This document shows positions 4,656 through 21,135 of a DNA stretch of 32,000 bases, one piece after another. The translations under genes were made by a program, and so were the position numbers. The stretch comes from Ktedonobacterales bacterium (GTDB taxonomy: Bacteria; Chloroflexota; Ktedonobacteria; Ktedonobacterales; JADMIN01). The stretch is taken from positions 420,001-452,000 of the forward strand of contig CP126532.1 of the NCBI GenBank assembly GCA_030167145.1, given 5' to 3'. The notes under the pieces were generated by a model. It saw only the letters and a program-made list of their open reading frames with translations, searched no databases and was not told the origin of the DNA. Numbering within the stretch: the first letter of the stretch is position 1; every line of letters starts with the position of its first letter.

Positions 4656-5042
4656 ATGGCGGGCAAAACAGGCACGCAGGTGAAAGCGCGAACCAAAGCT
4701 CAGGTGGATGACCACGCGGCGCCAGAACCGATGACGGCTGCCGCAGCCGGGCGTCGCGGTGGCGCGGCGGTCCGCGAAAAGTACGGCGAGGATTATTACC
4801 GGCGCATTGGCACACTTGGCGGCAACGCATTGAAGCAAAAGCGTGGCAGCGACTATTATCGCGACATCGCCAAGAAGGGCGGACGCGCGAATGTCGAGAA
4901 GTACGGACCCGACCACTTCGCGGAAATGGGAAAAAAAGGCGGCACGACGACGAAACAGCGTCAACCGAGCGACTTTTACAGCCGCATCGGCAAGCTCGGC
5001 GGCACGGCCAAGCGCAACAAAAAGTCACCAACCGAGCAGTAA
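4656..5042 (+). CDS. GsiB/YciG-like general stress protein with KGG repeats
   Basis: About 4.5 copies of a roughly 20-aa repeat G.DYY..IG.KGG (EDYYRRIGTLGG, SDYYRDIAKKGG, PDHFAEMGKKGG, SDFYSRIGKLGG), as in B. subtilis GsiB and E. coli YciG. SD GGGGAG upstream. Confidence 0.8.
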   Translation: MAGKTGTQVKARTKAQVDDHAAPEPMTAAAAGRRGGAAVREKYGEDYYRRIGTLGGNALKQKRGSDYYRDIAKKGGRANVEKYGPDHFAEMGKKGGTTTKQRQPSDFYSRIGKLGGTAKRNKKSPTEQ

Positions 5043-5057
5043 TCAGGATGCTGTGGA

Positions 5058-6149
5058 TTACTCGCCGCTCGTAGTGGGAAGCGCCGCTTTGGCTTCCAAT
5101 CCTTTTACGCCCTGCGCGATGACCTCTGGCAGCCGCGCCTCAGCGGCCTGGCGCGCCACACGAATTGCATTTTTGATGGCCTTCGCTTTCGAGCGCCCAT
5201 GCGAGATGATCGAGATGCCATTGACGCCGAGCACGGGAACACCACCATACTCCTCATAGTCGAGCTTGGTTCGTACGCGATCGAACGCTGGCTTGGCCAG
5301 CAGCGCGCCAACTTTGGTGACGGTCTGCGACATCAACTCCTCTTTGATGGTCGCGAGCAACATCTTTGCCAACCCCTCGCTGAGCTTTAGCGCCACATTG
5401 CCCACAAAGCCATCGCAGACTACCACATCCACCGAGCCGTCATTCAGATTGCGGCCCTCCACATTACCGATGAAGTTGAGGTCCAGGCCGGGTGCGGCGT
5501 CTTTGATGAGTTGGTGCGCCTGCTGAGTAAGCTGATCGCCTTTGGATTCTTCCTCGCCGTTCGAGAGCAGACCCACGCGCGGGCGCTCCACGCCAAAGAC
5601 GCTTCGCATATAGGCATGCCCCATATACGCGAATTGGAGCAGATATGAAGGCTTACAGTCGGTGTTCGCTCCCATGTCGATAATCAAGGTTTGCCGCCCA
5701 CCCGCAGCAGGAACCACACCGCCGAATGCCGGACGCTCGATACCACGAATGCGGCGCAACGTGAAGATCGCCGCTGCCAGCACGGCGCCGCTGTTGCCCG
5801 CCGAGACCGCGGCGACGGCGCGACCGTCACGCACCAACTCGTGGGCGAGGGTAATGCTATTGCGCTTCTTGGCGCGCACCGCTTCAGCAGGGTGCTCGTC
5901 CATACCGATTACCTCGTCGGCATGGACCACCTCCAGGTCTAGCCCTGCAATGTCGTATTTCGCCAGTTGGGGGCGAATAGCATCCTCTGGCCCAACCAAT
6001 AGTACGCCGACGTGCTGCTCACGCGCGGCCTGCACTGCTCCCAACACGACTTCTTCGGGGGCATAATCGCCGCCCATCGCGTCGAGAGCGATGCGCATGC
6101 GTGCGGTCGCGCCGCCCTGCCGCTCTGGCTGTTCCACTGCCTCGGCCAT
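5058..6149 (-). CDS. plsX: Phosphate acyltransferase PlsX
   Basis: MRIALDAMGGDYAPEEVV, SAGNSGA and HGRSKAKAIKNAI are PlsX hallmarks. Strong SD GAGGGGGAG before the ATG at 6149; alternative start at 6098 (MRIALD...). Confidence 0.95.
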   Translation of the reverse strand: MAEAVEQPERQGGATARMRIALDAMGGDYAPEEVVLGAVQAAREQHVGVLLVGPEDAIRPQLAKYDIAGLDLEVVHADEVIGMDEHPAEAVRAKKRNSITLAHELVRDGRAVAAVSAGNSGAVLAAAIFTLRRIRGIERPAFGGVVPAAGGRQTLIIDMGANTDCKPSYLLQFAYMGHAYMRSVFGVERPRVGLLSNGEEESKGDQLTQQAHQLIKDAAPGLDLNFIGNVEGRNLNDGSVDVVVCDGFVGNVALKLSEGLAKMLLATIKEELMSQTVTKVGALLAKPAFDRVRTKLDYEEYGGVPVLGVNGISIISHGRSKAKAIKNAIRVARQAAEARLPEVIAQGVKGLEAKAALPTTSGE

Positions 6150-9110: not shown

Positions 9111-9827
9111 ATGACATCTCAAGATTCTTTGCTGCAAGAACAGATCGCCTATTACCGGGCGCGCGCTGGTGAATATGATGAGTGGTTTCTCCGGCAAGGG
9201 CGTTATGATCGCGGGGAGGAAGCAAACGCGAGGTGGTTTGCCGAGGTACGGACGGTCGCCACTGTGCTTGACGACTTCGCGCCGACGGGTGATGTGCTGG
9301 AATTGGCCTGCGGCACGGGGCTATGGACGCAACGCCTGGCGCGCTATGCGACGACATTGACCGCGCTGGATAGCTCGCCTGAAACGCTGGAAGTGAACAA
9401 GCGACGGCTCGCAGGCGCTACGCATATTCGCTATGAGGTGGCTGATCTTTTTGCGTGGCGGCCAGAAAAGCGCTATGACGTTGTCTTCTTCAGTTTCTGG
9501 CTGTCTCATGTTCCGCCCGACCGATTCGAGCCATTCTTCCAATCAGTGGCAGCAAGCCTGGCTCCGGGAGGCCGGATCTTCTTCATTGACTCCCTGTATA
9601 CGCAGACATCCACCGCGCGCGACCACGTGCTCACTGAGCCAGACGCCACCACCATGACGAGGCGGCTCAATGATGGGCGCGAGTTTCAGGTTGTCAAAGT
9701 CTTTTACGAGCCGGCAGAGCTGGAGAGCCGATTGCGGACCTTGGGGTGGAATACAGCCGTGCAAACGACAGGTGAGTTCTTCCTGTATGGTAGCGGCGAA
9801 CACCGTTCGGGAGAGCGAGCGCCCTAG
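9111..9827 (+). CDS. Class I SAM-dependent methyltransferase
   Basis: VLELACGTGLWTQRLA (motif I), YDVVFFSFWLSHVP, GGRIFFIDS. SD GGAGGAAGG. Confidence 0.85.
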   Translation: MTSQDSLLQEQIAYYRARAGEYDEWFLRQGRYDRGEEANARWFAEVRTVATVLDDFAPTGDVLELACGTGLWTQRLARYATTLTALDSSPETLEVNKRRLAGATHIRYEVADLFAWRPEKRYDVVFFSFWLSHVPPDRFEPFFQSVAASLAPGGRIFFIDSLYTQTSTARDHVLTEPDATTMTRRLNDGREFQVVKVFYEPAELESRLRTLGWNTAVQTTGEFFLYGSGEHRSGERAP

Positions 9828-10726
9828 CCAATACGCTGGAGAGTGTGAAGCGGCTCCATCGCGGTTGTGCCATCGTCGAAGCGGAGCATCGCGCACGGTA
9901 CGAGCAAACCGTTTGCGATGAACTGCCGCCGAGCGAAGACATGCGTGACGACGCCATGTCCACCCGCGCGTTCGCCCGCAATGACATAGACGCGCGCACC
10001 CGCGCTGATGACGCCATCCAGTGGCAAGGGGTGGGTGGGCGAGCCAAGCGGCAAAGGCATGGCTACTTCTGGCCGGAGATTGCGGTGCGGCTCGGTATAC
10101 CCGCTGAGCAAGACGATGTCGTTTCCACGCTGGGCCAGCAATTGTTGGGCAGTCGCATTCATTGATGCGCTTCCCAGCCCTTCGGTGAGCATGACCGTCA
10201 AGGGAAGAGAGGCCGCGCTCGGAACCAAATCATCTAACAGGACGCTCAAATCAGCGCGAGCAAACGCTTCAAGCTCACGAGCCTGCGCGCTGCCCGCGAT
10301 GATGCCAACAGCGCCACCAGCCGCCGCCCGCTGCATTACTGTCAGACGGAGCTGACCGGGAATGATGAGGATACTGCCTGGAATAATCGGCGCCACGAGT
10401 GGAGAATCCCCACGTGGCAGACGAGCAAATGGACCGGCTACTGGACCACCTAGCCCCAAAACCCCATGCACGAGCGTGGCCGCGCCTTCTATCGTCACCC
10501 ATCTCCCCGGCGCGACATCCACGACCTTACCGGTCATCCCTGCCAACACTGCACGGCGCTTGCCCTCCGCCCCTGGCGATTCAGCAATCGGCTGATCTGG
10601 GCGTACCTGCTCACCAACGGAAACAAGTAACACACTTGCATTTGGCGGCAATGGGCGTTGTCGCCGCACAAGTGCTGAAGGCGCGAATGGGCGGCCATTT
10701 GGGTAGCTCAGACTCAGCCTATTCAT
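9824..10726 (-). CDS. Hypothetical 300-aa protein, third gene of the Zn-ribbon / GlmL-like operon
   Basis: ATG at 10726 (MNRLSLS...) lies 10 nt after the upstream stop, so the track ORF to 10912 would overlap the upstream gene. Hybrid-barrel-like VSVGEQVRPDQPIAE...GKVVDV and KOW/SH3-like GARVYVIAGERAGGHGVVTHV. Family not recognised. Confidence 0.6.
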   Translation of the reverse strand: MNRLSLSYPNGRPFAPSALVRRQRPLPPNASVLLVSVGEQVRPDQPIAESPGAEGKRRAVLAGMTGKVVDVAPGRWVTIEGAATLVHGVLGLGGPVAGPFARLPRGDSPLVAPIIPGSILIIPGQLRLTVMQRAAAGGAVGIIAGSAQARELEAFARADLSVLLDDLVPSAASLPLTVMLTEGLGSASMNATAQQLLAQRGNDIVLLSGYTEPHRNLRPEVAMPLPLGSPTHPLPLDGVISAGARVYVIAGERAGGHGVVTHVFARRQFIANGLLVPCAMLRFDDGTTAMEPLHTLQRIG

Positions 10727-10736
10727 AGCTCGCTTC

Positions 10737-12554
10737 TCATCCTTCCAACCCCAGAGTACGTCGCCATTCGAGCAGCCGCATGGCGCGCGCCTCGCGATCT
10801 TGCGGGAAGCGTAGCGGCCGGCCACGCGCATCCACCACCAATCCAAGTGGACCACCTTCCACTGGCTCACTTCCATGCGCATGCTGCCCTGGCCCCAGCC
10901 CAATGTCAACACCAGGAGCCGGATATAGCCCTAGAATCGCTTGCTCGCCCACTGGCAGAGGCAGCCGCGCGATAGCGCCCGCATGCACTTCTTCCTCGTG
11001 TTGATGACCACTGGCGAATTCGAGAGTCACCCGCACAACGGGTTCGCCTTGCGCAACCTCACCGACCGGTGAAATGACGGTCGCCAGTTGTGTGCCAATG
11101 GCGTCGCTGATCGCCGCTTCCCCAATCCTTACGGCGTCTAGCGCCGCACCGCTGCCAATCATACTGGCGAGTTGGGCGGTATCTAGCATCAGCGCGGTGA
11201 TGCCACGTGGCTGCAATGCATCAAGCAACAAGAGCGCCGCGTGCGCTGGATGCGGAACGTTGGCCAGCACCCCCCCGGTGCCCAGCACCACATCCATTGG
11301 GTGCATGCCTGCCAGCCGTGCGCCAGGCGCTCGCAGCGCCAGTTGGATCGCCTCGCGAGCAAAGGCATATTCGAACTCCAACTCGCGTGTGGTGAGGGGC
11401 AGCATTGTGGGCCGTAGCATGCGCATCAGCGCATATTCCCGCAGTTCGTCTTCCGTTGCCAAGATTGCCAGCCATTGCATCGCGCCAGCGGCTCCGCGTG
11501 CCCGCAGCAACGTACCAATCCCTGGCCCGACGCCAGCCGACGGATGAAGGGCAGGCAAGAATTCTCCCTGGGCAGTCGAGCCAGCGAGAGCCGTTGAAGA
11601 CGCGCCAACATCCACGCCCACCACATTCGTCTCGAAGCGTTGCGCCAGAAAACGCACCATGCCCGCCAGCGCAGTGATGGTGGCGATAGGCGGCGCGCTG
11701 GCCACCTGCCGCAAGGCGGCGAATCCCGGCAGAGTACTCAGTACCACTGGCTCATACAGTGCGCTGACGGCGCGGTTAAGCGGCGTGAGGGTGGACGGTG
11801 ACAGTCCTTCCACCACCTGCATTGCCACACGATCACGCAGTGGTGGCGCCAGGCGCTCGGCCTCGCGGGCGCTGCCTGTAAAAACAACCGGTGTACGCTG
11901 CCCAGCGGCCAGGCCCGTATCATTGAGCCGTGCAATCCAATCGGAAATCGCGGTGGTAGCTTCCTCCAGCGTGACACTTGGACGAACCTCGCCAAACGGC
12001 TGCCCAACAACCAGGAGAGCATGTGGCTGGCGCAGCCGCGCCTGCGAGAAGGCGGTATCCATAGAGGGCGGCTGAGGACGAGCCGAAAGCACCGGTAGGG
12101 CCTCCACCGAGATGAACAAGCCACCGAGCGAACGCAGCACCAGCGCCGCGAGATGGTCGCGCCCGGGGCCAGTGGTCAGCAAGTGCAGCGGGCCGCCGGC
12201 GCTCATCACGAGCGCGACACCATCCACTCCTGTGCCGTCTTCACGCATGGGCAGGATGATGTGCTGGTCGCGCTGTAATGTACATCCCGTCGTGCGCTCG
12301 ATCTCGCTCAGAGCATGCCGGACGCCAACCAACACATCGGTTATGGGCGGCATGTTGGTGGTCAGTGACTGCGCTCGCGCAAGCATACGAAAGCGCCCAT
12401 CCACCCGACCAAGCAGCGCGACTTTCGTAAAGACAGAACCACAATCCACAATCAGCAATGAACGAATTGCCTGTGTAGACCCCTGCTCAGTGGAATCCGT
12501 TACACGTTCCTGAGGTATCGCTGCCCCCACCTCGTATTGCTCCCTCACCAGCAC
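10737..12554 (-). CDS. GlmL/MutL-like (glutamate mutase L family-like) ASKHA actin-fold ATPase
   Basis: LLIVDCGSVFTKVALL (phosphate-1, compare DFGSTYTKV in GlmL), VVGVDVGASSTAL (phosphate-2), DVVLGTGGVLA (adenosine motif). Alternative GTG start at 12530 with GAGGGAG 9 nt upstream. Confidence 0.7.
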   Translation of the reverse strand: MLVREQYEVGAAIPQERVTDSTEQGSTQAIRSLLIVDCGSVFTKVALLGRVDGRFRMLARAQSLTTNMPPITDVLVGVRHALSEIERTTGCTLQRDQHIILPMREDGTGVDGVALVMSAGGPLHLLTTGPGRDHLAALVLRSLGGLFISVEALPVLSARPQPPSMDTAFSQARLRQPHALLVVGQPFGEVRPSVTLEEATTAISDWIARLNDTGLAAGQRTPVVFTGSAREAERLAPPLRDRVAMQVVEGLSPSTLTPLNRAVSALYEPVVLSTLPGFAALRQVASAPPIATITALAGMVRFLAQRFETNVVGVDVGASSTALAGSTAQGEFLPALHPSAGVGPGIGTLLRARGAAGAMQWLAILATEDELREYALMRMLRPTMLPLTTRELEFEYAFAREAIQLALRAPGARLAGMHPMDVVLGTGGVLANVPHPAHAALLLLDALQPRGITALMLDTAQLASMIGSGAALDAVRIGEAAISDAIGTQLATVISPVGEVAQGEPVVRVTLEFASGHQHEEEVHAGAIARLPLPVGEQAILGLYPAPGVDIGLGPGQHAHGSEPVEGGPLGLVVDARGRPLRFPQDREARAMRLLEWRRTLGLEG

Positions 12555-12567
12555 CTAAAGGCCATTT

Positions 12568-14355
12568 CTATCGTCCAAAGATGCGTCGCCAGCCACCACG
12601 TTTCTTGCCTTGTAGCTCATCGTCGCCACCACGGCGCGTGGGCATAGCATTTTGTCTATCGTAGCCATCATAGCCGCCGTACCCTACTGGATAGCGTTGC
12701 GAGGGGCCACCGTTCGCATACCCATCATCATAGTCGTAACCATCATACTCCCCTCCGGGAAAGTCTGGGGCATCCTGCCATTGTTGTGGCATATCCTCAC
12801 CCGCCCAATCCATACCTCGATTTCTCTGCGCGGGCGGGCGATGCGGCGCACCTTGCGGTTGGGGATGCGGCCCACCGCCATTTTGCAGCCACGGTGGCAA
12901 CTCGTCGCGTGGGATAGGCGCGCCCTGGTTTTGTGGGCCATCGGCGGCTCGCGTGCCACCTGGCCGCAGGCGCCCGGAGCCATCTGGTGGACGTTGAGGT
13001 TGACCGTAGGCTGCTGCCGACGCATCAGCAATGGGTTGGCGACCCGTATCTCTGGCATCCATCGCGGGCTGGCGTGTCGTGGATGGCAGGTCCACAGGGC
13101 TGGACGGCGGAGGCGGCGCGTTGTTGCCGCCCACCCAGTTGGGCAGCACACCAGGGTCAATCAGATCTGAGGCCGAGAAGCGCATACCAGCAGCGTCGCC
13201 GCTTCTGTTCGCGGGCGCGTTGGCTGGCCCCGGTACCCCGTTCGCTGCGGATGGATACTCTGCGGCAGCTTGCCCACGCATCCACTCTGGCAGTGCGGAT
13301 TGATCGAGAAACTCACTCGCACTGATGCTCGCGCCAGCGCCAGGCATCCCAGGCGCGGCTGGTGTACCCCAGGGTTGCGGGCCTTGCGGTGGTTGCGGCT
13401 GCATGACCTGCTGTTGCGCGCTAGCTTCAGCATAGACTTGGCGCATCCAGGTCGGTAGCGGCACACTCATGGATTGCGAACCAGCCCACTGCTCTGGCTG
13501 CGGCTGGCCAGAATATGCCGCCGCGGGAGGCTGGGGTTGCGGGTTCGGCTGTGCGCGTAGCCACGACGGCAGCGCATTCTCATCAACCAGCGATTGCGCC
13601 TGCATGCCCCCGCCAGTGCGCCCACCTTCCATGGATTGCGGCGGAGCCGCGTTTGAGCCGCCGAGCCATGATGGCATGGCCGAAGCGTCGAGCAGTGAGC
13701 GCGCGCTCATCGCGTCACTCGACGCTGACGCAGCGCCAAAAGCTCCAGCGCTCTCGATGCCAGGGAACGCCGACGCCTGAGACGATGGGGGGTAAGGCGC
13801 TTGCGCTGGCGCGGGTTGTTGATATGGTTGATACGGCACAGGTGGCTGTGCAGGCACGTACCCTGGTGGCGGCGCTCCATATGGAGGCGCGGGCTGCCGG
13901 GCTGTGGGCTGGACGGGCAGATCGTTTTGCGTGCCCCCTTGCTGCCAAAGCCATTCCGGCAGGGCGGACTCGTCGAAGAGATTCTGTGCGGATACACCGG
14001 GAACAAGTCCCGCACGGCCCGGAGGAACCTGCGCTTGCGCGCCCTGCCCGAAGGCGGGAGACAGTGGCGGGGGCGCTGGGTCGCGCGGATCGCCTGGATC
14101 AGGCGCATACCAGCCCGGCTGCTGTTGCTGCGGGGCAGCGCCATTTTGCATGCCAGCACGGAGCCACTCTGGCAGCCCTGAATCATCGGGAGGCCCGCCG
14201 TAAGCGCCTTGCCCCGGCTGCTGATAGGGCGGCCTCTGCTGTGGAAAGCCAGCGCCCATTGGCATACCACCTGGCTGGATCAGCGGCGTGCCGCACATCG
14301 GACAGACGGGGGTTCCCTGGCGGTTATTTTGCCCACAACGAGGACACGGTATCAC
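12568..14355 (-). CDS. Zinc-ribbon protein with a long P/Q-rich region carrying repeated LPxW[LMV] motifs
   Basis: N-terminal CPRCGQNNRQGTPVCPMCG (CxxC-N11-CxxC). 8 copies of the LPxW motif, 5 of them in the extended form SAxxLxDxxALPxWL. GTG start with SD AAAGGGAG 7 nt upstream. The antisense 299-aa ORF 13515..14414 is Arg/Ala-rich with no motifs. Confidence 0.75.
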   Translation of the reverse strand: MIPCPRCGQNNRQGTPVCPMCGTPLIQPGGMPMGAGFPQQRPPYQQPGQGAYGGPPDDSGLPEWLRAGMQNGAAPQQQQPGWYAPDPGDPRDPAPPPLSPAFGQGAQAQVPPGRAGLVPGVSAQNLFDESALPEWLWQQGGTQNDLPVQPTARQPAPPYGAPPPGYVPAQPPVPYQPYQQPAPAQAPYPPSSQASAFPGIESAGAFGAASASSDAMSARSLLDASAMPSWLGGSNAAPPQSMEGGRTGGGMQAQSLVDENALPSWLRAQPNPQPQPPAAAYSGQPQPEQWAGSQSMSVPLPTWMRQVYAEASAQQQVMQPQPPQGPQPWGTPAAPGMPGAGASISASEFLDQSALPEWMRGQAAAEYPSAANGVPGPANAPANRSGDAAGMRFSASDLIDPGVLPNWVGGNNAPPPPSSPVDLPSTTRQPAMDARDTGRQPIADASAAAYGQPQRPPDGSGRLRPGGTRAADGPQNQGAPIPRDELPPWLQNGGGPHPQPQGAPHRPPAQRNRGMDWAGEDMPQQWQDAPDFPGGEYDGYDYDDGYANGGPSQRYPVGYGGYDGYDRQNAMPTRRGGDDELQGKKRGGWRRIFGR

Positions 14356-14756
14356 GGGCGTACTCCCTTTCGGACCATCAGGCGAACCGTCTGCTCGGCG
14401 CTCTACATTGCTGACTGCCGCTCGAACTCACGCTCGTGGAAAAGCGCTTCGCATACCCACGCACGCGGCAGGGGTCGTGGGGCAGTGTACCATCCGGCAT
14501 TATGCAGCGCAAATGGACTACTACTTCTGTGGCGCTTGTGTGAAGCTTTCCGCGACAGGCGCTCGCCGTCGCGTCGTCCGAACGAGGAGCGAATACCGCA
14601 TAATTGCCTATTTACTTGCCCGTTCCTTGCTGGTATGCTGGTACCAGCAAGTGAGCATGGCCGGATACGCGAATGCGGAAGTGCAGCTAACGGGATGCTG
14701 ATTCCACATGAGGATGCGTTTGCCGAGTGCTCAGGCAAGCGGAAGGGGGATTTCTC

Positions 14757-15104
14757 ATGGCAACACGGCAGCGTAAGGCGTCTGAACCAGCGGTCGCGCT
14801 TCAAGAATCAACGGAGCCAGTGAAGAAACGCCGGGGGCCGCGCGCAGGTTCTGAAAATGCGCGGCGTGGCGGCATGGCGGTGCGTGAGAAGTATGGTCCG
14901 GAGTTCTTCGCGAAGATAGGCTCCAAAGGCGGGCGCACAGTGCGCGAGCGCCGTGGCCCCGATTTCTATGCCTCAATCGGCCGCATGGGTGGTCAGCGCA
15001 CACGCGACACACTGGGCATAGATCACTACGAGCGCATCGGGCGTATGGGCGGTCTACGCGCCCGCCAAAAAGAGCGCGCATCGGCTCAAGGCGACAACAA
15101 GTAA
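14757..15104 (+). CDS. GsiB/YciG-like general stress protein with KGG repeats (paralog of 4656..5042)
   Basis: PEFFAKIGSKGG, PDFYASIGRMGG, IDHYERIGRMGG repeats. ATG at 14757 has SD GGAAGGGGGA 6 nt upstream and is preferred over the track's GTG at 14727. Confidence 0.8.
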   Translation: MATRQRKASEPAVALQESTEPVKKRRGPRAGSENARRGGMAVREKYGPEFFAKIGSKGGRTVRERRGPDFYASIGRMGGQRTRDTLGIDHYERIGRMGGLRARQKERASAQGDNK

Positions 15105-15133
15105 GCGCGCCCGCTAAATACGTGGCCAAGAAC

Positions 15134-15175
15134 GGTGGGGCAGCTCCATGAGGAGACTACCCCACCACATTTTTG
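15134..15175 (+). terminator. Rho-independent terminator after the second KGG gene
   Basis: GGTGGGG...CCCCACC 7-bp GC stem with an inner CTCC/GGAG pairing, followed by ACATTTTTGT. Starts 30 nt after the stop. Confidence 0.6.
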
Positions 15176-15219
15176 TATCTATTGCCAACTGCCCGTAAAC
15201 ACCGCGCGCAGAGACAACG

Positions 15220-15798
15220 CTAAGATGCCGCAGCAAGCAACTGAGCGCCAGGGTTTTCGGTGCTGACGAAGTGAGCGGGTGCGCCCAGAACTGTAAGCCG
15301 CTTGACGCCGATTACTCGCATCGTGACGCCGGGCGTGCGAGTCGTCACGTATCGCTGCACGAGCAACCCCAATGGGCGCGCAATGAGCAGTGCCGCTGTC
15401 GAAGCAAGGATGACGTTGTTGAACGAGTTATATGGCTTGCGCAGCTTCGCGACGGTCATAGCGGAGAGGCCAGTAAGCATGCCTGCAACAGCGAGATTCG
15501 TACCGCAACGCTCGTGGATGGCAAGTTCGGGGGCGTCGCCGCGTAATCGGGTAAGTGCCATCTCAGCGGCGGGACGAACGGACTCTGTAGGGACATCGCC
15601 AAAGACAAAGAAGCCAGTAGCGAAGGAAACGCCCGAAAGACGCGCCTCAGGAAAACGTTTGCTCAGCAAGACAATGGTCGCGTGTTCAAGGGCGTGGTTT
15701 TCGCGGACAGCGCCACCAAGTGTCACCTGCTGGATGACCTGCTCGATAGGATTCATATCGGGTATGCTCACTTCTTGCCATCTGATCGCTCGCGCCAT
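15220..15798 (-). CDS. Hypothetical protein with HxxEH and HERCGT motifs and two hydrophobic segments
   Basis: 192-aa ORF with ENHALEHATIV (H35/E38/H39) and AIHERCGTN (H95/C98). Hydrophobic LAVAGMLTGLSAMTV and VILASTAALLIARPLGLLV. Alternative start at 15756 (MNPIEQ). Confidence 0.6.
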   Translation of the reverse strand: MARAIRWQEVSIPDMNPIEQVIQQVTLGGAVRENHALEHATIVLLSKRFPEARLSGVSFATGFFVFGDVPTESVRPAAEMALTRLRGDAPELAIHERCGTNLAVAGMLTGLSAMTVAKLRKPYNSFNNVILASTAALLIARPLGLLVQRYVTTRTPGVTMRVIGVKRLTVLGAPAHFVSTENPGAQLLAAAS

Positions 15799-16067: not shown

Positions 16068-16772
16068 GTGGAAGAGGCGAAGTCATTGGCAACGGTACGC
16101 CAGCTTGACCCCGGCACTCGCCGGTACACCCGCCATATCGTCTTCGAGCTTGCTCATATCATCCGCGAGCGCGACATCATCACCTACGAACACTGCCGCC
16201 GCGTGGCGGTCTACGCCAGCAGGCTGGCACGCGAATATGGGTGGTCGCGCCGTGCCGCCCACGATCTGGCTCTGGCCGGATTGGTCCACGACCTGGGCAA
16301 GAACTGGATGCACAACGATATTCTCTTCAAGGAATCGGCGCTTTCAAATGATGAGCGCGCGGAAATGGAGCGCCACCCCAGCATCGCGGCGAACATCCTG
16401 CATACGTATGGCGCGCCGAAGACGCTGGTTCAGGCCGTGCTGCATCACCACGAACGCTACGATGGCCTGGGCTATCCCGACCATCTGGCCGGTGAGGAGA
16501 TACCACTGGGCGCACGCCTGTTGACTGTTGCCGACGTATTCGATGCGATAACTGCTGAGCGTCCATATAAGCGGGCCATGGAGAGCATCACCGCCCGCGA
16601 CCGCATTGTGGCCGCAACCGGCACACACTTTGATCCTGCAATTGTCGCGGCCTTTGTGCGATTGCTCGACACCCATCCTAACTTCCTGATTCCGTCTAGA
16701 ATCTCGCCACTACCACCGCGCCCAGCACCCCATCCCGTCTGGATGCGCCACGACCACTTCGACGAAGAATGA
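16068..16772 (+). CDS. HD-GYP domain phosphohydrolase (putative c-di-GMP phosphodiesterase), stand-alone
   Basis: HCRRVAVYA...GLVHDLGK...HHHERYDGLGYP...ADVFDAITAERPYK. GTG start. Confidence 0.9.
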   Translation: MEEAKSLATVRQLDPGTRRYTRHIVFELAHIIRERDIITYEHCRRVAVYASRLAREYGWSRRAAHDLALAGLVHDLGKNWMHNDILFKESALSNDERAEMERHPSIAANILHTYGAPKTLVQAVLHHHERYDGLGYPDHLAGEEIPLGARLLTVADVFDAITAERPYKRAMESITARDRIVAATGTHFDPAIVAAFVRLLDTHPNFLIPSRISPLPPRPAPHPVWMRHDHFDEE

Positions 16773-16946: not shown

Positions 16947-17969
16947 ATGCTGATGGGAGCCGATGGCGGCTTGGCTGATGCGACAGCGGAAGCACACATT
17001 GCCTCCGGGGCTGCAGCGGTGCGTGCGGCAGCGGATGCCATCCGGGCCAATGTCAGCCAGGTGATGGTGGGCAAAGCGAGCGCGATAGATCTGCTGCTGG
17101 TCACGCTGTTGAGCGAGGGGCATGCGCTGATCGAAGATGTGCCCGGCCTTGGCAAAACCGTGATGGCTAAAGCACTCGCCCGCTCGCTCGGCGTCCCCTT
17201 CGCGCGCATCCAGGGTACCGCCGATTTGCTGCCCAGCGATGTAACCGGCGTCAGCTACTTCAGCCAGAAGGCGAGCGAGTTCGAGTTCCGCCCTGGTCCC
17301 ATCTTCGCCAGCATCGTGCTGGCCGACGAGATCAACCGCGCCACCCCACGTACTCAGTCAGCCTTGCTTGAAGCGATGCAAGAACGCCAGGCGACGGTGG
17401 ACGGGCGCACCATGCCGCTGCCGCTCCCGTTTCTGCTCGTCGCCACGCAGAATCCCATCGAACTGGAAGGCACCTTTCCCTTGCCAGAGGCCCAGCTAGA
17501 CCGCTTCCTCACACGCCTGCGCGTCGCCTATCCCACCTTCGATGACGAACGGGCAATGCTCTATCGCTTCAAAGAGGCGCAACCACTTGAGACGCTTCAG
17601 CCCGTGGTGAGTGGCGACGAGTTGCTGCAGCTGCTGCCGGTGGTGCGGGCCGTGCGGGTGGCTGAGCCGGTGAGCGACTACCTGCTGAAAATCGTGCGTG
17701 AGACGCGCGAGCATCCGGCCATCGAATTGGGCGCTAGTCCGCGCGCGGCGCTGGCACTCTTTCGGGCGGCGCAGGCGCATGCGGCAATGCGGGGGCGCAC
17801 CTTTGTCAAGCCAGATGACCTCAAGGCGCTAGCGGCGCCCGTGCTGGCGCACCGTCTGGTGGTCTCTGCGCAGACCCGCCTGCGCGGGCAGGGCGCAGAG
17901 CAGGTGATTCAGAGCATCCTCGACCGGACACCGGTGCCCGTCGAAAAGCTCGGCGACGACGATCGGTAA
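16947..17969 (+). CDS. MoxR-family AAA+ ATPase
   Basis: GHALIEDVPGLGKT (Walker A), IVLADEINRA (Walker B), ATQNPIELEGTFPLPEAQLDRF, GASPRAALAL. SD AGGAGAGGA. Confidence 0.95.
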   Translation: MLMGADGGLADATAEAHIASGAAAVRAAADAIRANVSQVMVGKASAIDLLLVTLLSEGHALIEDVPGLGKTVMAKALARSLGVPFARIQGTADLLPSDVTGVSYFSQKASEFEFRPGPIFASIVLADEINRATPRTQSALLEAMQERQATVDGRTMPLPLPFLLVATQNPIELEGTFPLPEAQLDRFLTRLRVAYPTFDDERAMLYRFKEAQPLETLQPVVSGDELLQLLPVVRAVRVAEPVSDYLLKIVRETREHPAIELGASPRAALALFRAAQAHAAMRGRTFVKPDDLKALAAPVLAHRLVVSAQTRLRGQGAEQVIQSILDRTPVPVEKLGDDDR

Positions 17970-17975
17970 ACGACG

Positions 17976-19676
17976 ATGACCAATGGCCAGGGTCAGCACG
18001 AGAATATGGCGGGAAAGTCGCCAGATACGCTTCAGTATCTGGGACGCAACCTCTACATTCTCGGCTGGAAGATCAAACGCCGCACGAATGATGTCTCGCG
18101 CGAGCCGCCTGACTTGACACTTCTGGCGCGCCGCCCGCTCTATGTGATGTCTGGAATCATCGCGCTCTCCAGTTTCTTCTTACGCCAGCCACTGCTCTTC
18201 GTCGGCGGTCTATTGGTGTTCATGATTACCTTCGTGCCGGAAATGTGGTATCGCTACTGCTTGCGCGAGTTGGTAATCGAACGCTCGCCAGTAACAAAAC
18301 GCGCGGAGTTCGGCGAGAAGTTCGAGGTGCGGTTGCTGGCGGAAAACCGGAAGCCACTCCCTTTGCCGTGGATTGAGATCGCAGATGAGTTTCCCGAAGC
18401 GCTGCCTGTGCAAGGCAAACGGCTTACGGTCTCCGCGAAATCTGAGCGCGCAATACTCAACAACACGCTTGCGCTGTGGGCGTATCAGCGCGTGCGCAGA
18501 CGCTACTCATTGCTCGCGTCAGTACGCGGCGCTCATGTATTCGGGCCAGCACGGCTGCGCATCAGCGACCCATTCGGCATTCTGACTCGCGAGGTAGATC
18601 TCGATGTGAGGGCCACCTTGCTGGTACATCCACTGGTCGCGCCACTAGAACGCTTCAATCTCAACCCCAACGCCCCGTTCGGCGAACGCAAATCACGCCA
18701 GCGGCTTCTGGAAGATCCACTACGGGTGGCGGGAATCCGCACCTATGCGCCGGGAGACGAGCCACGGCGAATCCACTGGAAAGCCACCGCGCGTACTGGC
18801 GCACTGCAGAGCAAAGTTTACGAGTCGTCCACGCGACATACGCTGGCAATCTTTCTCGATACGCGCACGTATACACATTTGCATATGGGCTATGACCCGG
18901 AGATTGCCGAACTAGCAATCAGTGCCGCGGCTTCGGTCACGCGGTGGGCATTGGATCGGGGATTTGCGGTCGGCATCTTTTCCAACGGCGCGGTCCACGC
19001 GGCAGGCATGGATGAAGACGCCAGCACGAACGCACCTGGCACACTGGCGCGCGCAATGCCAGACGCGCAAGACGATGCTCAGCGGCTCGCTATCGAAATC
19101 GCGCGCTATTCCGGCGCATTGCGGCTGCGCATCCCACCAGCCTCGCGCCCAGAGCAGATGATCCGCACGCTGGATGGATTGGCGCGGCTGCTACCATATC
19201 ATGGAACGCCGATGTTTGCTGTGCTGGAAGGCGAACGTCCGCGCCTGCCCATGGGCGCATCGGTGGTCTACATTGGCGCGGAGGCACTCGTAGACGTGCC
19301 GCTGATTGTAGCATTGCGCCGGTGCCGCTCACACGGACACAGCGTCTCCCTGCTGCTGACACAGGGATCTGAGAAGGTCCAGGATGACACAGTAGGGTCG
19401 CTGCATCTTACTGGCCTGGATACCCACATGATCGGCGGCAGAGAGATCTGGCGCGGCCTGGTTTCCGACGCGCTCGGCAGCTACACGAATCGCCGCGCGA
19501 CCGATCCGGTGCGCGCGGACACGGGTGACACATCCACGGAAACCACCAACCAGAGAGATAGTGACCCGGTATCCGCTGTTTCTGAACGCATAGATGGACA
19601 ACGTGATGACGGCAACAACGGCGCAAAATCAACCGATAGATCCTTCAAAGAGACGCGGGCGCTGGTGGTCGAATAG
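17976..19676 (+). CDS. DUF58 domain protein (MoxR-associated, vWA-like), unusually long at 566 aa
   Basis: Two N-terminal TM segments. DUF58 signature YAPGDEPRRIHWKATARTGALQSKVYE. Starts 6 nt after the MoxR stop. Confidence 0.85.
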   Translation: MTNGQGQHENMAGKSPDTLQYLGRNLYILGWKIKRRTNDVSREPPDLTLLARRPLYVMSGIIALSSFFLRQPLLFVGGLLVFMITFVPEMWYRYCLRELVIERSPVTKRAEFGEKFEVRLLAENRKPLPLPWIEIADEFPEALPVQGKRLTVSAKSERAILNNTLALWAYQRVRRRYSLLASVRGAHVFGPARLRISDPFGILTREVDLDVRATLLVHPLVAPLERFNLNPNAPFGERKSRQRLLEDPLRVAGIRTYAPGDEPRRIHWKATARTGALQSKVYESSTRHTLAIFLDTRTYTHLHMGYDPEIAELAISAAASVTRWALDRGFAVGIFSNGAVHAAGMDEDASTNAPGTLARAMPDAQDDAQRLAIEIARYSGALRLRIPPASRPEQMIRTLDGLARLLPYHGTPMFAVLEGERPRLPMGASVVYIGAEALVDVPLIVALRRCRSHGHSVSLLLTQGSEKVQDDTVGSLHLTGLDTHMIGGREIWRGLVSDALGSYTNRRATDPVRADTGDTSTETTNQRDSDPVSAVSERIDGQRDDGNNGAKSTDRSFKETRALVVE

Positions 19677-21135
19677 ACGCTCCCAGGCGATCATTCTCAT
19701 CGCCACAGCACTGTTGCTCGACCTGCTGCCAGTGGAGACGTGGCTACTGGTGGCGGGGAGCGCGACTGGCACGCGCCTGGAAGACGCGCCACTCTCTCTC
19801 GGCACATTGGTAGGACTTTTCGCGCTTTCATGGGCGGTAGGCTGGTTTCTCCGGCAGGCGACCCACAAAGCGATAGTAATAGTCGGCGGGACGTGTTTCT
19901 TCCTCTCACTGATCTTCGTGCTGTGGACCTCGCCAAGCGCCTACGGTGCCATCACAGGCAGCCGACTGGCTGCATTCGCTAGCGATTGGGGCACGGCATC
20001 GCCTCGGATACTCACTGCCCTGCTGTTAGTTCCCCTGGTGGTCTATATCTGGTGGCGTGGCTACAGTACAGGGCGCGAAACGCCGGGCACAAGCGCCGTG
20101 ATGACACGCTTCAAACTGGGGCTAGGCGCTATGCTGATCGCCATCGCCGCGACAGCCACCCTTGAGGGCGCCGAACGCGATGCCGTACTTGGCGCGCTTG
20201 CCATTCTGCTTCCCGTTCAAGTGTTCTGTGGGCTGGTGGCAAACGGCTTGGCGCGAATGGCAGAGGAGCAGACGCGGCGCGTGGCGGGGGCAACGGACAC
20301 AGCCGCAGAGCGCCCGTGGCTTGGCCTCTCGCTCACGCTGGCGGGGCTGATCGTCGGGCTGGCAATGGCGCTCAGCCTAGTGGTGAATTATCAGAGCATC
20401 GGTGCGCTCCTTGGGCACCTCGGCATCCTCGGCGCCTTTCTGAATGACGCTGCACACTGGCTGATCGAGCTGCTCGCCCAAGTACTCAACTTCCTCTTCG
20501 GCGGTCTCGTCAATGCTCTATCCGGGAAAACCACCACGCCGCCCAGGCTCCAACCGCCCACTAATCCTCACTGTATTCCGACAATACAAAATCCATGTTC
20601 AACGGTGCACGATACGTCGCAGATCAAATTGTGGCTGCACGTGGCAACAATTGTCAGCCAGGTCATTATCCTTGCAGCGTTTCTGGGCGTCCTGCTCTTT
20701 GTCTTGCGGGGGGTATTGTTCGGGCTGCGCCTGCACCGGCCAGAGTACGACGCGATGGAAGAAGATCGCGAGTCGCTCGACGGCAAGTCGCTCTTCCGGC
20801 AGCAAGTGCGCGCATTCTTCGACCAGTTCCAGCGGCGACGCCCCGCGCCCGCGATGGATCCCCTCACGCCCGGCTCGGTACGCTATCTCTACCGTGAATT
20901 GCTGCAAGCAGCGGCAGCTCAGGGGTTGAGGCGCAAACCTGCCGAAACGCCTGATGAGTACGCGGAGCGCCTGGTTACAGTGAAGCCGACCGCGACGGCA
21001 ACCACAGATGATGTGCGCGCATTGAGTGACGCCTACACCACGACGCGCTATGGCGAGCGTGAGCCGGGCGAGCCAGAGCGCAAGCGACTCCGGCAGATAA
21101 CAGATCGGCTGCGGAGGGCACTCGCGAGAGGATAG
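19594..21135 (+). CDS. Polytopic membrane protein with C-terminal DUF4129-like domain
   Basis: About 8-9 hydrophobic segments. C-terminal YRELLQAAAAQGLRRKPAETPDEYAERL...LSDAYTTTRYGEREP resembles DUF4129 (the tail of TgpA-type proteins). Start uncertain: the 19594 ATG overlaps DUF58 by 83 nt and has no clear SD. Confidence 0.7.
   Translation: MDNVMTATTAQNQPIDPSKRRGRWWSNRRSQAIILIATALLLDLLPVETWLLVAGSATGTRLEDAPLSLGTLVGLFALSWAVGWFLRQATHKAIVIVGGTCFFLSLIFVLWTSPSAYGAITGSRLAAFASDWGTASPRILTALLLVPLVVYIWWRGYSTGRETPGTSAVMTRFKLGLGAMLIAIAATATLEGAERDAVLGALAILLPVQVFCGLVANGLARMAEEQTRRVAGATDTAAERPWLGLSLTLAGLIVGLAMALSLVVNYQSIGALLGHLGILGAFLNDAAHWLIELLAQVLNFLFGGLVNALSGKTTTPPRLQPPTNPHCIPTIQNPCSTVHDTSQIKLWLHVATIVSQVIILAAFLGVLLFVLRGVLFGLRLHRPEYDAMEEDRESLDGKSLFRQQVRAFFDQFQRRRPAPAMDPLTPGSVRYLYRELLQAAAAQGLRRKPAETPDEYAERLVTVKPTATATTDDVRALSDAYTTTRYGEREPGEPERKRLRQITDRLRRALARG

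Follow-up and report, generated by a model that had tools for sequence, protein, structure and literature searches.

A compact operon in the genome of a Ktedonobacterales bacterium (Chloroflexota; assembly GCA_030167145.1) appears, from its sequence and its relatives in other genomes, to encode the ktedonobacterial form of a widespread and uncharacterised ATPase system with signs of membrane association. The operon lies in a stretch of 32,000 nucleotides (contig CP126532.1, positions 420,001 to 452,000 of the forward strand), which we call the window and number from its first letter. It consists of three minus-strand genes: g1, encoding a protein with a putative zinc ribbon and an array of LPxW-type motifs; g2, encoding a predicted actin-fold ATPase of the ASKHA superfamily related to MutL; and g3, encoding a partner protein. 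The explanation that we favour, with confidence slightly short of even, is that g1 acts as a multivalent membrane-tethered adaptor that recruits a g2-g3 ATPase complex. The evidence that carries this proposal is the conservation of the gene set, the restriction of the motif array to the position next to g2, and the distribution of a basic terminal tail between g1 and g2.

A scan with one genome per species yielded 60 related loci. A multi-motif open reading frame (ORF) lay directly upstream of g2 in 35 of the 36 Ktedonobacterales-type loci with enough upstream DNA, and g3 lay directly downstream of g2 in 36 of the 37 with enough downstream DNA. The triad locus is syntenic with housekeeping neighbours across genomes, and since the flanking genes (an LEA-like gene, methyltransferase genes, and a LysR gene) are also syntenic in many Ktedonobacterales loci, gene order in this group is by itself weak evidence. 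The triad is also intact in the cultured Thermogemmatispora sp. and Dictyobacter arantiisoli, where it is surrounded by other genes (DUF92, DNA polymerase III delta, and iPGM). Across about 850 kb, comprising the window and the related loci, ORFs with at least three motifs were found solely immediately upstream of g2. These two observations are evidence independent of local synteny. The original prediction, made from the letters of the window, had proposed that the three genes belong together and that the ATPase works with or on the motif protein. The co-occurrence and order of the triad were kept in the related genomes, and the proposed link between motif protein and ATPase was strengthened by the exclusive adjacency and by the tail, which is carried by g1 or by g2 depending on the class. 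Taken together, the comparisons support the view that the three genes form a conserved functional unit.

Outside Ktedonobacterales, a g3 homologue was located next to g2 in every locus with downstream sequence except one (L051), and the pair was found in contigs of Chloroflexota, Bacillota, and Cloacimonadota and in Planctomycetota-like ones. In other phyla, the reading frames of g2 and g3 often overlap, by 1-32 nt, and some lineages encode both as one protein, of 972-1062 aa in Cloacimonadota and of 1003 aa in Ozemobacteraceae, where it is annotated 'glutamate mutase L'. One Cloacimonadota fusion (L059, 6719-9907, 1062 aa) joins a Zn_ribbon_2 domain to MutL and to a g3 portion that retains the barrel-sandwich and alpha/beta domains and has lost the KOW domain. 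In Chloroflexia, Anaerolineae/Aggregatilineales, a Planctomycetota-like metagenome-assembled genome (MAG), and another metagenome contig, the pair is part of a gene cluster with the order DUF6754 membrane protein, polytopic protein of about 210 aa, a protein here called X, second polytopic protein of about 210 aa, MutL, and g3. Locus L065 (7125-13770) contains two tandem MutL-g3 pairs, with a 108-aa ORF between them, after one DUF6754/membrane/X/membrane set. Judged from these gene neighbourhoods, the true core of the system is the widespread g2-g3 pair, usually embedded in a membrane-protein cluster, and g1 is a Chloroflexota-specific add-on.

The proteins at the X position suggest where the motif array of g1 may have come from. 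In the non-Chloroflexota contigs, X has an N-terminal transmembrane segment, a soluble domain, and a C-terminal transmembrane segment. The protein at this position in Anaerolineae and Chloroflexia has 630-1560 aa, an internal transmembrane segment, and a C-terminal one followed by RRRR, and its C-terminal module aligns weakly, in collinear order, with X (E 1e-3 to 1e-5). Its N-terminal part contains 2-11 motifs of the form [LVM]P[DxE]W[LF]; in Anaerolineae the first copy lies within approximately the first 20 residues, and the Chloroflexia protein opens with a zinc ribbon. Because the motifs are N-terminal and the X-like transmembrane module is C-terminal, the array can be regarded as an N-terminal extension of a membrane component. 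It is presumably cytoplasmic, given the basic residues at both X termini and the zinc ribbon, and ktedonobacterial g1 looks like this motif extension detached from its transmembrane module. Searches of PDB sequences with DUF6754, X, and the small membrane protein returned nothing useful, and g3, DUF6754, X, and the small membrane proteins appear to be without characterised relatives in the searches made. An Rnf/Nqr-type complex, suggested by the RnfC_N/NqrA-like character of g3 and by the polytopic neighbours of about 210 aa, was dropped as a candidate; eight membrane proteins of the cluster gave no Rnf/Nqr match even at E values up to 10.

The motif array and C-terminal tail of g1

The order of modules in g1 is a putative zinc ribbon, a disordered region rich in P, Q, G, and A that carries eight motifs, an acidic Tyr-rich patch, and a basic-aromatic tail (Table 1), and this order is kept in the orthologues upstream of g2. 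Proline, glycine, alanine, and glutamine together account for 55% of the residues. Eight LPxW[LMV] motifs had originally been reported; seven of them are strict, and the eighth reads MPSWL, so that the pattern becomes [LM]PxW[LMV]. In 20,000 shuffles of g1, the mean number of motifs was 0.02 and the maximum 2, and eight of the 15 tryptophans of the protein fall inside motif cores. A logo of 258 instances gave the Ktedonobacterales consensus G-[FML]-S-A-x-S-L-[IVL]-D-E-x-A-L-P-x-W-L-R, and the Anaerolineae consensus was E-[VL]-P-D-W-[LF]. The proline and the tryptophan are invariant, the flanks are acidic, and the copy number varies from 4 to 16. These traits, together with the disorder of the surrounding sequence, are the reasons for which we read the motif as a probable short linear docking motif. 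The alternative that the repeats are membrane-binding amphipathic segments was considered unlikely in view of the conserved acidic flanks and the proline in the core.

The other modules of g1 were also largely as first described. The CxxC pair of the zinc ribbon is present, with a spacer of 10 residues instead of the 11 originally given; its four cysteines are kept in 31 of 36 g1 orthologues, and its Pfam scores are slightly under the cut-offs (Zn_Ribbon_1, 23.3 bits, cut-off 25; Zn_ribbon_3, 22.9 bits, cut-off 27). The acidic Tyr patch and the basic C-terminal tail were both found, and similar acidic/Tyr stretches stand ahead of the tail in g1 orthologues. The original prediction had allowed that g1 might turn out to be an untranslated frame. 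The idea of a spurious ORF of GC-rich DNA was rejected, since the zinc ribbon, the motif register, and the tail are kept at only 30-40% identity, and we treat g1 as a real gene. No transmembrane or hydrophobic segment and no signal peptide were predicted in g1, and the protein is therefore expected to be cytoplasmic.

The g1 proteins of Ktedonobacterales end with (K/R)(K/R)GGW(R)(R)[FIL]FGR(K) or GFFGFLRRG, and the ends of the Ktedonobacteraceae-type and Thermogemmatispora proteins are clear amphipathic helices (KRSFLDVIRSWFPH, the Thermogemmatispora tail, RKRNMFDMIREWISR, and RRGFIETIRSWFSH). Hydrophobic moments (muH) of ten g1 tails ranged from 0.47 to 0.80 and were mostly within the top 5% of their own protein, with one at the 86th percentile. 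The Ktedonobacteraceae-type tails had values of 0.75-0.80; the tail of the window protein, with a net charge of +5, had a muH of 0.47, in the top 2% within g1. These moments are similar to those computed for the targeting peptides of Escherichia coli MinD and FtsA.

At the position of the g1 tail, the Anaerolineae/Chloroflexia protein has a transmembrane helix and RRRR. In Anaerolineae/Aggregatilineales (L040, L041, L045, L047, and L053), it is g2 that possesses an acidic C-terminal extension of 150-190 aa, which contains two to three copies of (K/R)RRGLFGRR and a terminal KPRRFLRR. Ktedonobacterales g2 ends just past a conserved W-x-x-A-L-G, without an extension of the Anaerolineae type. A tail preceded by acidic residues is found on g2 where g1 or X has a transmembrane anchor, and on g1 where g2 has no tail. 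As Anaerolineae g2 carries the tail that Ktedonobacterales g2 lacks, the tail would be supplied either in cis or in trans. Of the arguments at hand that g1 and g2 act as one physical unit at the membrane, this swap, known from sequence comparison, is the strongest. The targeting helix of MinD is weak and requires at least two copies (PMC6803595), a behaviour that by analogy fits tails placed on multivalent or oligomeric assemblies.

The ATPase g2 and its partner protein g3

The g2 protein matched the Pfam family MutL (PF13941) with 97.8 bits (E 8e-28, two stretches; cut-off 27), and its distant orthologues scored 228-357 bits. It failed the GlmL equivalog model NF040745 (20.9 bits, cut-off 475) and the GlmL-related Or-4 model (18.4 bits, cut-off 600), and it had no match to TIGR01319 (glmL_fam, cut-off 204 bits). 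The less divergent MutL protein of L065 failed as well, with 223 against 475 bits for NF040745 and 164 against 204 bits for glmL_fam. The earlier assignment of g2 to the GlmL/MutL type stands insofar as g2 is a Pfam MutL member; it is GlmL-like at the level of this family and not at that of the equivalog and Or-4 models. The motifs on which the assignment had been based were all found: VDCGSVFTKV at residues 36-45, VGVDVGASST at residues 312-321, and VLGTGGV at residues 423-429. Across 16 g2 sequences from several phyla, the conserved positions were D37, G39, S40, and T43 in the phosphate-1 motif, D315 and G317 in the phosphate-2 motif, and G427 in the adenosine motif; an AxAREA motif and a C-terminal D-x-R-G-R-P motif were also conserved in these orthologues.

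An AlphaFold2 monomer model of g2, computed from 14 sequences (mean predicted local distance difference test score, pLDDT, 81.7), featured an ASKHA core at approximately residues 32-485, an extra all-beta domain at residues 488-576, and a terminal helix at residues 587-600. Foldseek matched the model, with low template modelling scores (TM-scores), to acetophenone carboxylase (the best match, 5l9w_B, E 7e-10), DnaK/Hsc70, FtsA, PilM, ParM, acetone carboxylase, and DdrA; PDB entry 5eou, whose title is PilM:PilN1-12, was among the matches. A g2 profile found nothing among PDB sequences. Both the motifs and the fold matches place g2 in the ASKHA superfamily. It had no Pfam match to the FtsA, PilM, MreB, or ParM families, and the likeness to them is one of fold, at a target-normalised TM-score of about 0.34-0.43; g2 lies outside these families, although it may conceivably work in a similar way. 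On the criteria of NCBI thresholds and gene context, we classify g2 as a member of the ASKHA superfamily and of Pfam MutL and not as GlmL or a GlmL-family protein.

The AlphaFold2 monomer model of g3 (pLDDT 84.4) contained three domains: a barrel-sandwich-like beta domain (residues 14-102), an alpha/beta domain (residues 119-223), and a KOW/SH3-like barrel (residues 240-298). A hybrid-barrel-like N-terminus and a KOW/SH3-like C-terminus, as read from the sequence before, are in line with the folds of the model; the Pfam signals, which agree with it, are weak (RnfC_N, 14.6 bits, cut-off 25.6; KOW, 20.5 bits, cut-off 22.3), and RnfC_N scored 17.9-20.5 bits in g3 orthologues, also under the cut-off. 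A profile search of PDB sequences gave Spt5/NusG at E 0.01-0.2 and an E2 lipoyl domain at E 0.006, and nothing useful emerged. Foldseek matches were limited to single domains, with the C-terminal barrel aligning to Spt5 KOW domains at target TM-scores of 0.70-0.86 and NqrA appearing as a weak match (query TM-score 0.27). According to the model, a KOW/SH3-like fold is present at the g3 C-terminus, and this domain is a candidate member of the KOW family.

No Pfam or NCBIfam family was found for g3, and 91 of 91 close homologues are labelled 'hypothetical'. A profile search of 1.84 billion representatives retrieved 1,633 clusters at E<=1e-3 and 1,028 at E<=1e-10, with named members from Planctomycetaceae, Bacillota, and others, all of them 'hypothetical'. 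Positions invariant across phyla are mostly Gly and Pro, together with R24, E182, and R218; no Lys or Cys is invariant, and for this reason g3 is taken to be neither a biotin/lipoyl carrier, a candidate that was rejected for want of a conserved Lys, nor an Fe-S protein.

These properties bear on three other explanations of the g2-g3 pair. In the first, g2 is a classical GlmL/MutL protein, which would assist or reactivate a coenzyme-B12-dependent mutase whose genes lie in another part of the genome. The Pfam MutL score above the cut-off, the diol dehydratase reactivase DdrA among the fold matches, and the weak RnfC_N likeness of the g3 N-terminus would agree with this; the cobalamin reductase PduS also has an RnfC_N domain. 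We nevertheless hold it to be very improbable. The GlmL and Or-4 models failed, the L065 member fails too, g3 lacks conserved Cys for Fe-S clusters, and the membrane and motif features are left unexplained. The original prediction had noted no mutase or B12 gene in the window: none was detected among the window ORFs scanned with Pfam, and no B12-binding or mutase gene adjoins g2 in the annotated related loci, the sole exception being an opposite-strand, unrelated B12-radical-SAM gene in L067. A B12 link was rejected as the main explanation on the basis of the missing mutase and B12 domains in the scanned window ORFs and beside g2, together with the failed models.

In the second, g2 and g3 would form a soluble ATP-dependent enzyme of the hydantoinase/acetone-carboxylase type acting on a small molecule, and g1, though co-transcribed, would be mechanistically separate. 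The best fold match of g2 is acetophenone carboxylase, acetone carboxylase is also among its matches, distant g2 orthologues have weak Hydantoinase_A matches, and a minimal g2-g3 pair without g1 or membrane genes occurs in several phyla. On the other hand, g3 has few polar residues that are invariant across phyla, metabolic genes are not consistently adjacent, and the exclusive g1-g2 adjacency and the tail swap favour physical coupling. We consider an enzyme of this kind unlikely.

The third explanation concerns a chaperone or condensate, in which g2-g3 would be an Hsp70-like remodeller and g1 its client or a phase-separating scaffold whose assembly state is controlled by the ATPase. We assign it a similarly low probability. 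DnaK/Hsc70 are among the top Foldseek matches of g2, more than half of g1 is P, G, A, and Q, and a low-complexity neighbour recurs in a Bacillota contig, where a Q/G/Y-rich repeat protein (436 aa) of unrelated sequence lies directly upstream of MutL-g3. However, the substrate-binding domain of Hsp70 proteins is missing from g2, no partner with a J-domain was seen, the low-complexity neighbour is absent from many g2-g3 pairs, and neither the membrane tail or transmembrane anchor nor the membrane-gene cluster would be explained.

Proposed mechanism and related systems

In the tethered-adaptor mechanism that we favour, g2 and g3 probably form one complex. The g1 tail, basic-aromatic or amphipathic, would hold g1 at the inner face of the membrane, and the eight acid-flanked LPxW[LM]R motifs would serve as short docking peptides through which several g2-g3 units are recruited and brought together. 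Binding and hydrolysis of ATP by g2 would then drive assembly, or a conformational cycle, on a membrane-associated target. We infer each of these elements, namely complex formation, tail-membrane binding, motif binding to g2 or g3, and ATPase activity, from comparative data. Motif docking would resemble the binding of the N-terminal peptide of PilN (residues 1-12) by PilM and that of the FtsZ tail by FtsA and ZipA. The candidate binding partners of the motif are g2, g3, the zinc ribbon, and a protein encoded elsewhere.

Several observations weigh against this mechanism. The Chloroflexota g2 clade is divergent, scoring 98 bits with Pfam MutL compared to 228-357 bits in other lineages, and its phosphate-2 motif reads DVGASST where other lineages have DIGGATTD; both features imply that catalysis is possibly weakened. 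The similarity of X modules across phyla is weak, as the E values given above indicate. The Ktedonobacterales loci showed neither DUF6754 nor the other membrane genes at distances of up to 7 kb from the triad. The tail of the window protein is Gly-rich, and its hydrophobic moment is just moderate. Finally, g2-g3 pairs occur in Bacillota, Cloacimonadota, and some Chloroflexota without the motif protein or membrane genes nearby, and because such minimal pairs exist, the core does not strictly depend on either.

Among known systems, PilM-PilN, of the type IV pilus alignment complex, and FtsA with the FtsZ tail or FtsN offer parallels, as pairs in which an actin-fold protein binds a short peptide of its partner at the membrane: g2 is similar to PilM and FtsA at the level of the fold, a short Pro/aromatic peptide lies near the N-terminus of a two-transmembrane protein in Anaerolineae, and an amphipathic tail is present on the ATPase or on its partner. 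The triad differs in that g2 is not a member of those families, a long disordered region carries 4-16 copies of the peptide, and an extra constant subunit, g3, is present. The original prediction had pointed, as a speculation, to proline-rich regulators of actin-fold proteins. No support was found for a likeness to the eukaryotic regulators of this type, and bacterial peptide docking of the PilM-PilN and FtsA-FtsZ kind fits better as an analogy. Like the targeting sequences of MinD and FtsA, the g1 tail appears to be a short C-terminal basic-aromatic amphipathic peptide; unlike them, it is located on a disordered scaffold or, in Anaerolineae, occurs in two to three copies on the acidic g2 extension.

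ZipA, which has a transmembrane segment and a P/Q linker, is a membrane tether made up of an anchor, a long disordered linker, and a small binding domain, a plan that g1 appears to parallel. Haloarchaeal CdpC, another such tether, consists of an amphipathic helix, a zinc ribbon, a linker of 243 aa, and a second zinc ribbon (bioRxiv 10.64898/2026.07.16.738847), and in g1 a putative zinc ribbon, an extended P/Q-rich disordered stretch, and an amphipathic/basic peptide at the terminus are likewise found, in an order reversed relative to CdpC. There is no sequence homology to CdpC or ZipA, and g1 has an internal motif array and is operonic with an ASKHA ATPase, not linked to FtsZ.

The GlmL/MutL accessory protein of coenzyme-B12-dependent glutamate mutase, whose gene lies between glmS and glmE, has the Pfam family and the ASKHA fold in common with g2, which also keeps the conserved positions of the phosphate-1, phosphate-2, and adenosine motifs. 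The differences are the failed equivalog and Or-4 models, the absence of mutase genes nearby, the extra C-terminal beta domain with D-x-R-G-R-P, the regular pairing with g3, and the link to membrane proteins and tails. The g3 gene is not known to be part of glutamate mutase operons. The reactivases DdrA/PduG and EutA and the ATPase subunits of hydantoinase and acetophenone carboxylase are ASKHA proteins with large insertions and are among the best fold matches of g2, but TM-scores are 0.2-0.3, no match to PDB sequences was obtained, and genes for cognate enzymes are not nearby. A defence system was considered as well and rejected, as neither g1, g2, nor g3 had a PADLOC match.

The analogy with cell division permits a further explanation, in which the LPxW[LM]R motif imitates the FtsZ peptide [IV]-P-x-[FY]-L-R; g1 would compete with or bridge the proteins that bind the FtsZ tail, g2 would be an FtsA-like receptor, and the role would lie in division or septation. 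By inspection, the A-L-P-x-W-L-R of g1 can be set beside the D-I-P-A-F-L-R of E. coli FtsZ (PMC4117426), and [IL]-P-x-[FW]-L-R is a pattern common to both. Both FtsA and ZipA have a weak affinity for the FtsZ tail (DYLDIPAFLRKQAD), given as 20-50 uM and, for single peptides with FtsA, as 20-80 uM (PMC4117426). FtsA is among the fold matches of g2, the architecture of g1 parallels that of CdpC, which is a Z-ring anchor, one Chloroflexia contig has a RodZ gene right after the cluster, and mreBCD is absent from Ktedonobacteria (PMC10608941). A likeness of six residues, noticed post hoc, could nevertheless be due to chance. A tubulin-signature search found no ftsZ in the window or in the 60 loci, division genes are not consistently adjacent, and the Anaerolineae motif E-V-P-D-W-F has no basic residue. 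The chance that g1 mimics FtsZ is accordingly rated as slim. The probability left after the tethered adaptor and these four alternatives goes to something else altogether.

A broader and more speculative version of the adaptor proposal, which we consider possible though rather doubtful, regards g2-g3 as the cytoplasmic engine of an unrecognised membrane machine of several phyla, composed of DUF6754, two small polytopic proteins, the two-transmembrane protein X, a MutL-like ATPase, and g3. The ATPase would come from a family known to date only through a B12-mutase accessory gene. Chloroflexota would have gained a multivalent, acid-flanked [LV]-P-x-W-[LF] docking array, and the mycelial, MreB-less Ktedonobacteria would have freed it as a scaffold that is tethered by an amphipathic helix and gathers the ATPase at the membrane, perhaps in the service of envelope growth or septation. 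The array of such a machine would be a bacterial equivalent of the adaptors with motif arrays in eukaryotic membrane traffic, or else would mimic the tail of FtsZ or the N-terminus of PilN.

The original prediction had called the operon a candidate undescribed system, and nothing in Pfam, NCBIfam, PADLOC, PDB, or the literature searched contradicts this. Literature searches (PF13941, DUF6754, GlmL, and ASKHA with Ktedonobacter) returned no account of the system; none of the literature searched mentions PF13941 or DUF6754, and one paper names GlmL with glutamate mutase in passing. In reviews, 'glutamate mutase' is listed among non-polymerising actin-fold enzymes (PMC5597319). We rate the system, on comparative grounds, as undescribed and far from any known one. 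If the adaptor proposal is correct, it would provide a first cellular context, at the membrane and not in B12 enzymology, for a large MutL/GlmL branch labelled 'glutamate mutase L'. It would also establish g3 as a new family of partner proteins, which is widespread (about 1,600 clusters at 50% identity) and has no Pfam model, and g1 as a bacterial disordered scaffold with a conserved array of short linear motifs. The natural variation in valency (4-16), in anchor (amphipathic tail or transmembrane), and in tail placement (g1 or g2) would be convenient for studies of multivalent recruitment, and the existence of cultured hosts (Thermogemmatispora and Dictyobacter) makes the system experimentally approachable. 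In the mycelial Ktedonobacteria, which lack mreBCD (PMC10608941), an extra membrane-associated actin-fold system would be of cell-biological interest.

Layout of the locus and neighbouring genes

The three minus-strand ORFs, the gaps of 13 and 10 nt between them, and the Shine-Dalgarno sequence ahead of g1 were all found as first reported (Table 1). The start of g1 is the GTG at 14355. The public call of g1 (P0359) begins at an internal Met, has 563 aa, and loses the zinc ribbon; because 31 of 36 g1 orthologue ORFs begin with V/M-x-x-C-P-R-C-G, the GTG is the better start. The 13 nt between g1 and g2 become 37 nt if the alternative GTG of g2, the one called by NCBI, is used. For g3, the ATG at 10726 was chosen, its homologues having about 298 aa compared with 362 aa for the longest ORF. 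The 3' end of g3 overlaps a convergent methyltransferase gene by 4 nt. A promoter and terminator scan of positions 9500-15300 gave counts near the shuffled expectation.

Table 1. Coordinates of the operon genes and of the sequence features of g1 in the window
Feature	Position	Strand	Remarks
g1	12568..14355	-	595-aa ORF
Shine-Dalgarno-like AAAGGGAG	14363..14370	-	7 nt 5' of the g1 GTG; read in sequence
g1 zinc ribbon CPRCGQNNRQGTPVCPMC	14293..14346	-	residues 4-21; CxxC-N10-CxxC (C4, C7, C18, C21)
Eight [LM]PxW[LMV] motifs	12886..14175	-	array in g1
Motif cores, first four of eight	14161-14175, 13948-13962, 13663-13677, 13558-13572	-	
Motif cores, last four of eight	13444-13458, 13279-13293, 13132-13146, 12886-12900	-	
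g1 acidic Tyr-rich patch EYDGYDYDDGY	12718..12750	-	residues 536-546
g1 C-terminal basic-aromatic tail KKRGGWRRIFGR	12571..12606	-	residues 584-595; predicted membrane-targeting peptide
g2	10737..12554	-	605-aa ORF; 597 aa if GTG at 12530
g3	9824..10726	-	300-aa ORF

Long ORFs in alternative frames, of at most 299 aa, overlap with g1 on either strand, for example at 13515-14414 (+) and 13707-14270 (-), and are taken to be by-products of the GC-rich low-complexity sequence. Divergent from g1, a gene for a small hydrophilic stress protein of the LEA_5/KGG-repeat type is located at 14727-15104 (+). The gene recurs at the corresponding place in 17 related Ktedonobacterales loci, and a paralogous LEA_5/KGG signal is present in the window at 4770-5018 (+). 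Upstream of the operon and on its strand, the gene at 15220-15798 (-) encodes a DUF6391 protein (144 bits); the related loci have no DUF6391 gene in their 7-kb flanks. Further on, an HD-GYP-type protein gene (16068-16772) precedes a MoxR AAA ATPase gene, which stands in series with DUF58 and DUF4129 genes at 16947-21135 (+) and has no relation to the triad.

Further genes adjoin the g2-g3 pair in related loci. In a Bacillota MAG (L063), a 436-aa Q/G/S/Y-rich protein with long near-identical repeats is encoded at 4656-5966, directly upstream of MutL-g3, and WhiA and sigma-54 genes follow downstream. A RodZ homologue (HTH_25 plus RodZ_C) lies right after the g3 homologue in a Chloroflexia locus (L048, 10478-11410) and was seen in this lineage only. 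Downstream of g3 in L040, a very acidic protein of about 270 aa is encoded at 10358-11161 and is conserved in four loci. The same locus contains, at 11470-12849, a gene for a STAND/AAA NTPase fused to an OmpR-type DNA-binding domain, which also occurs downstream of g3 in L045, L047, and L053.

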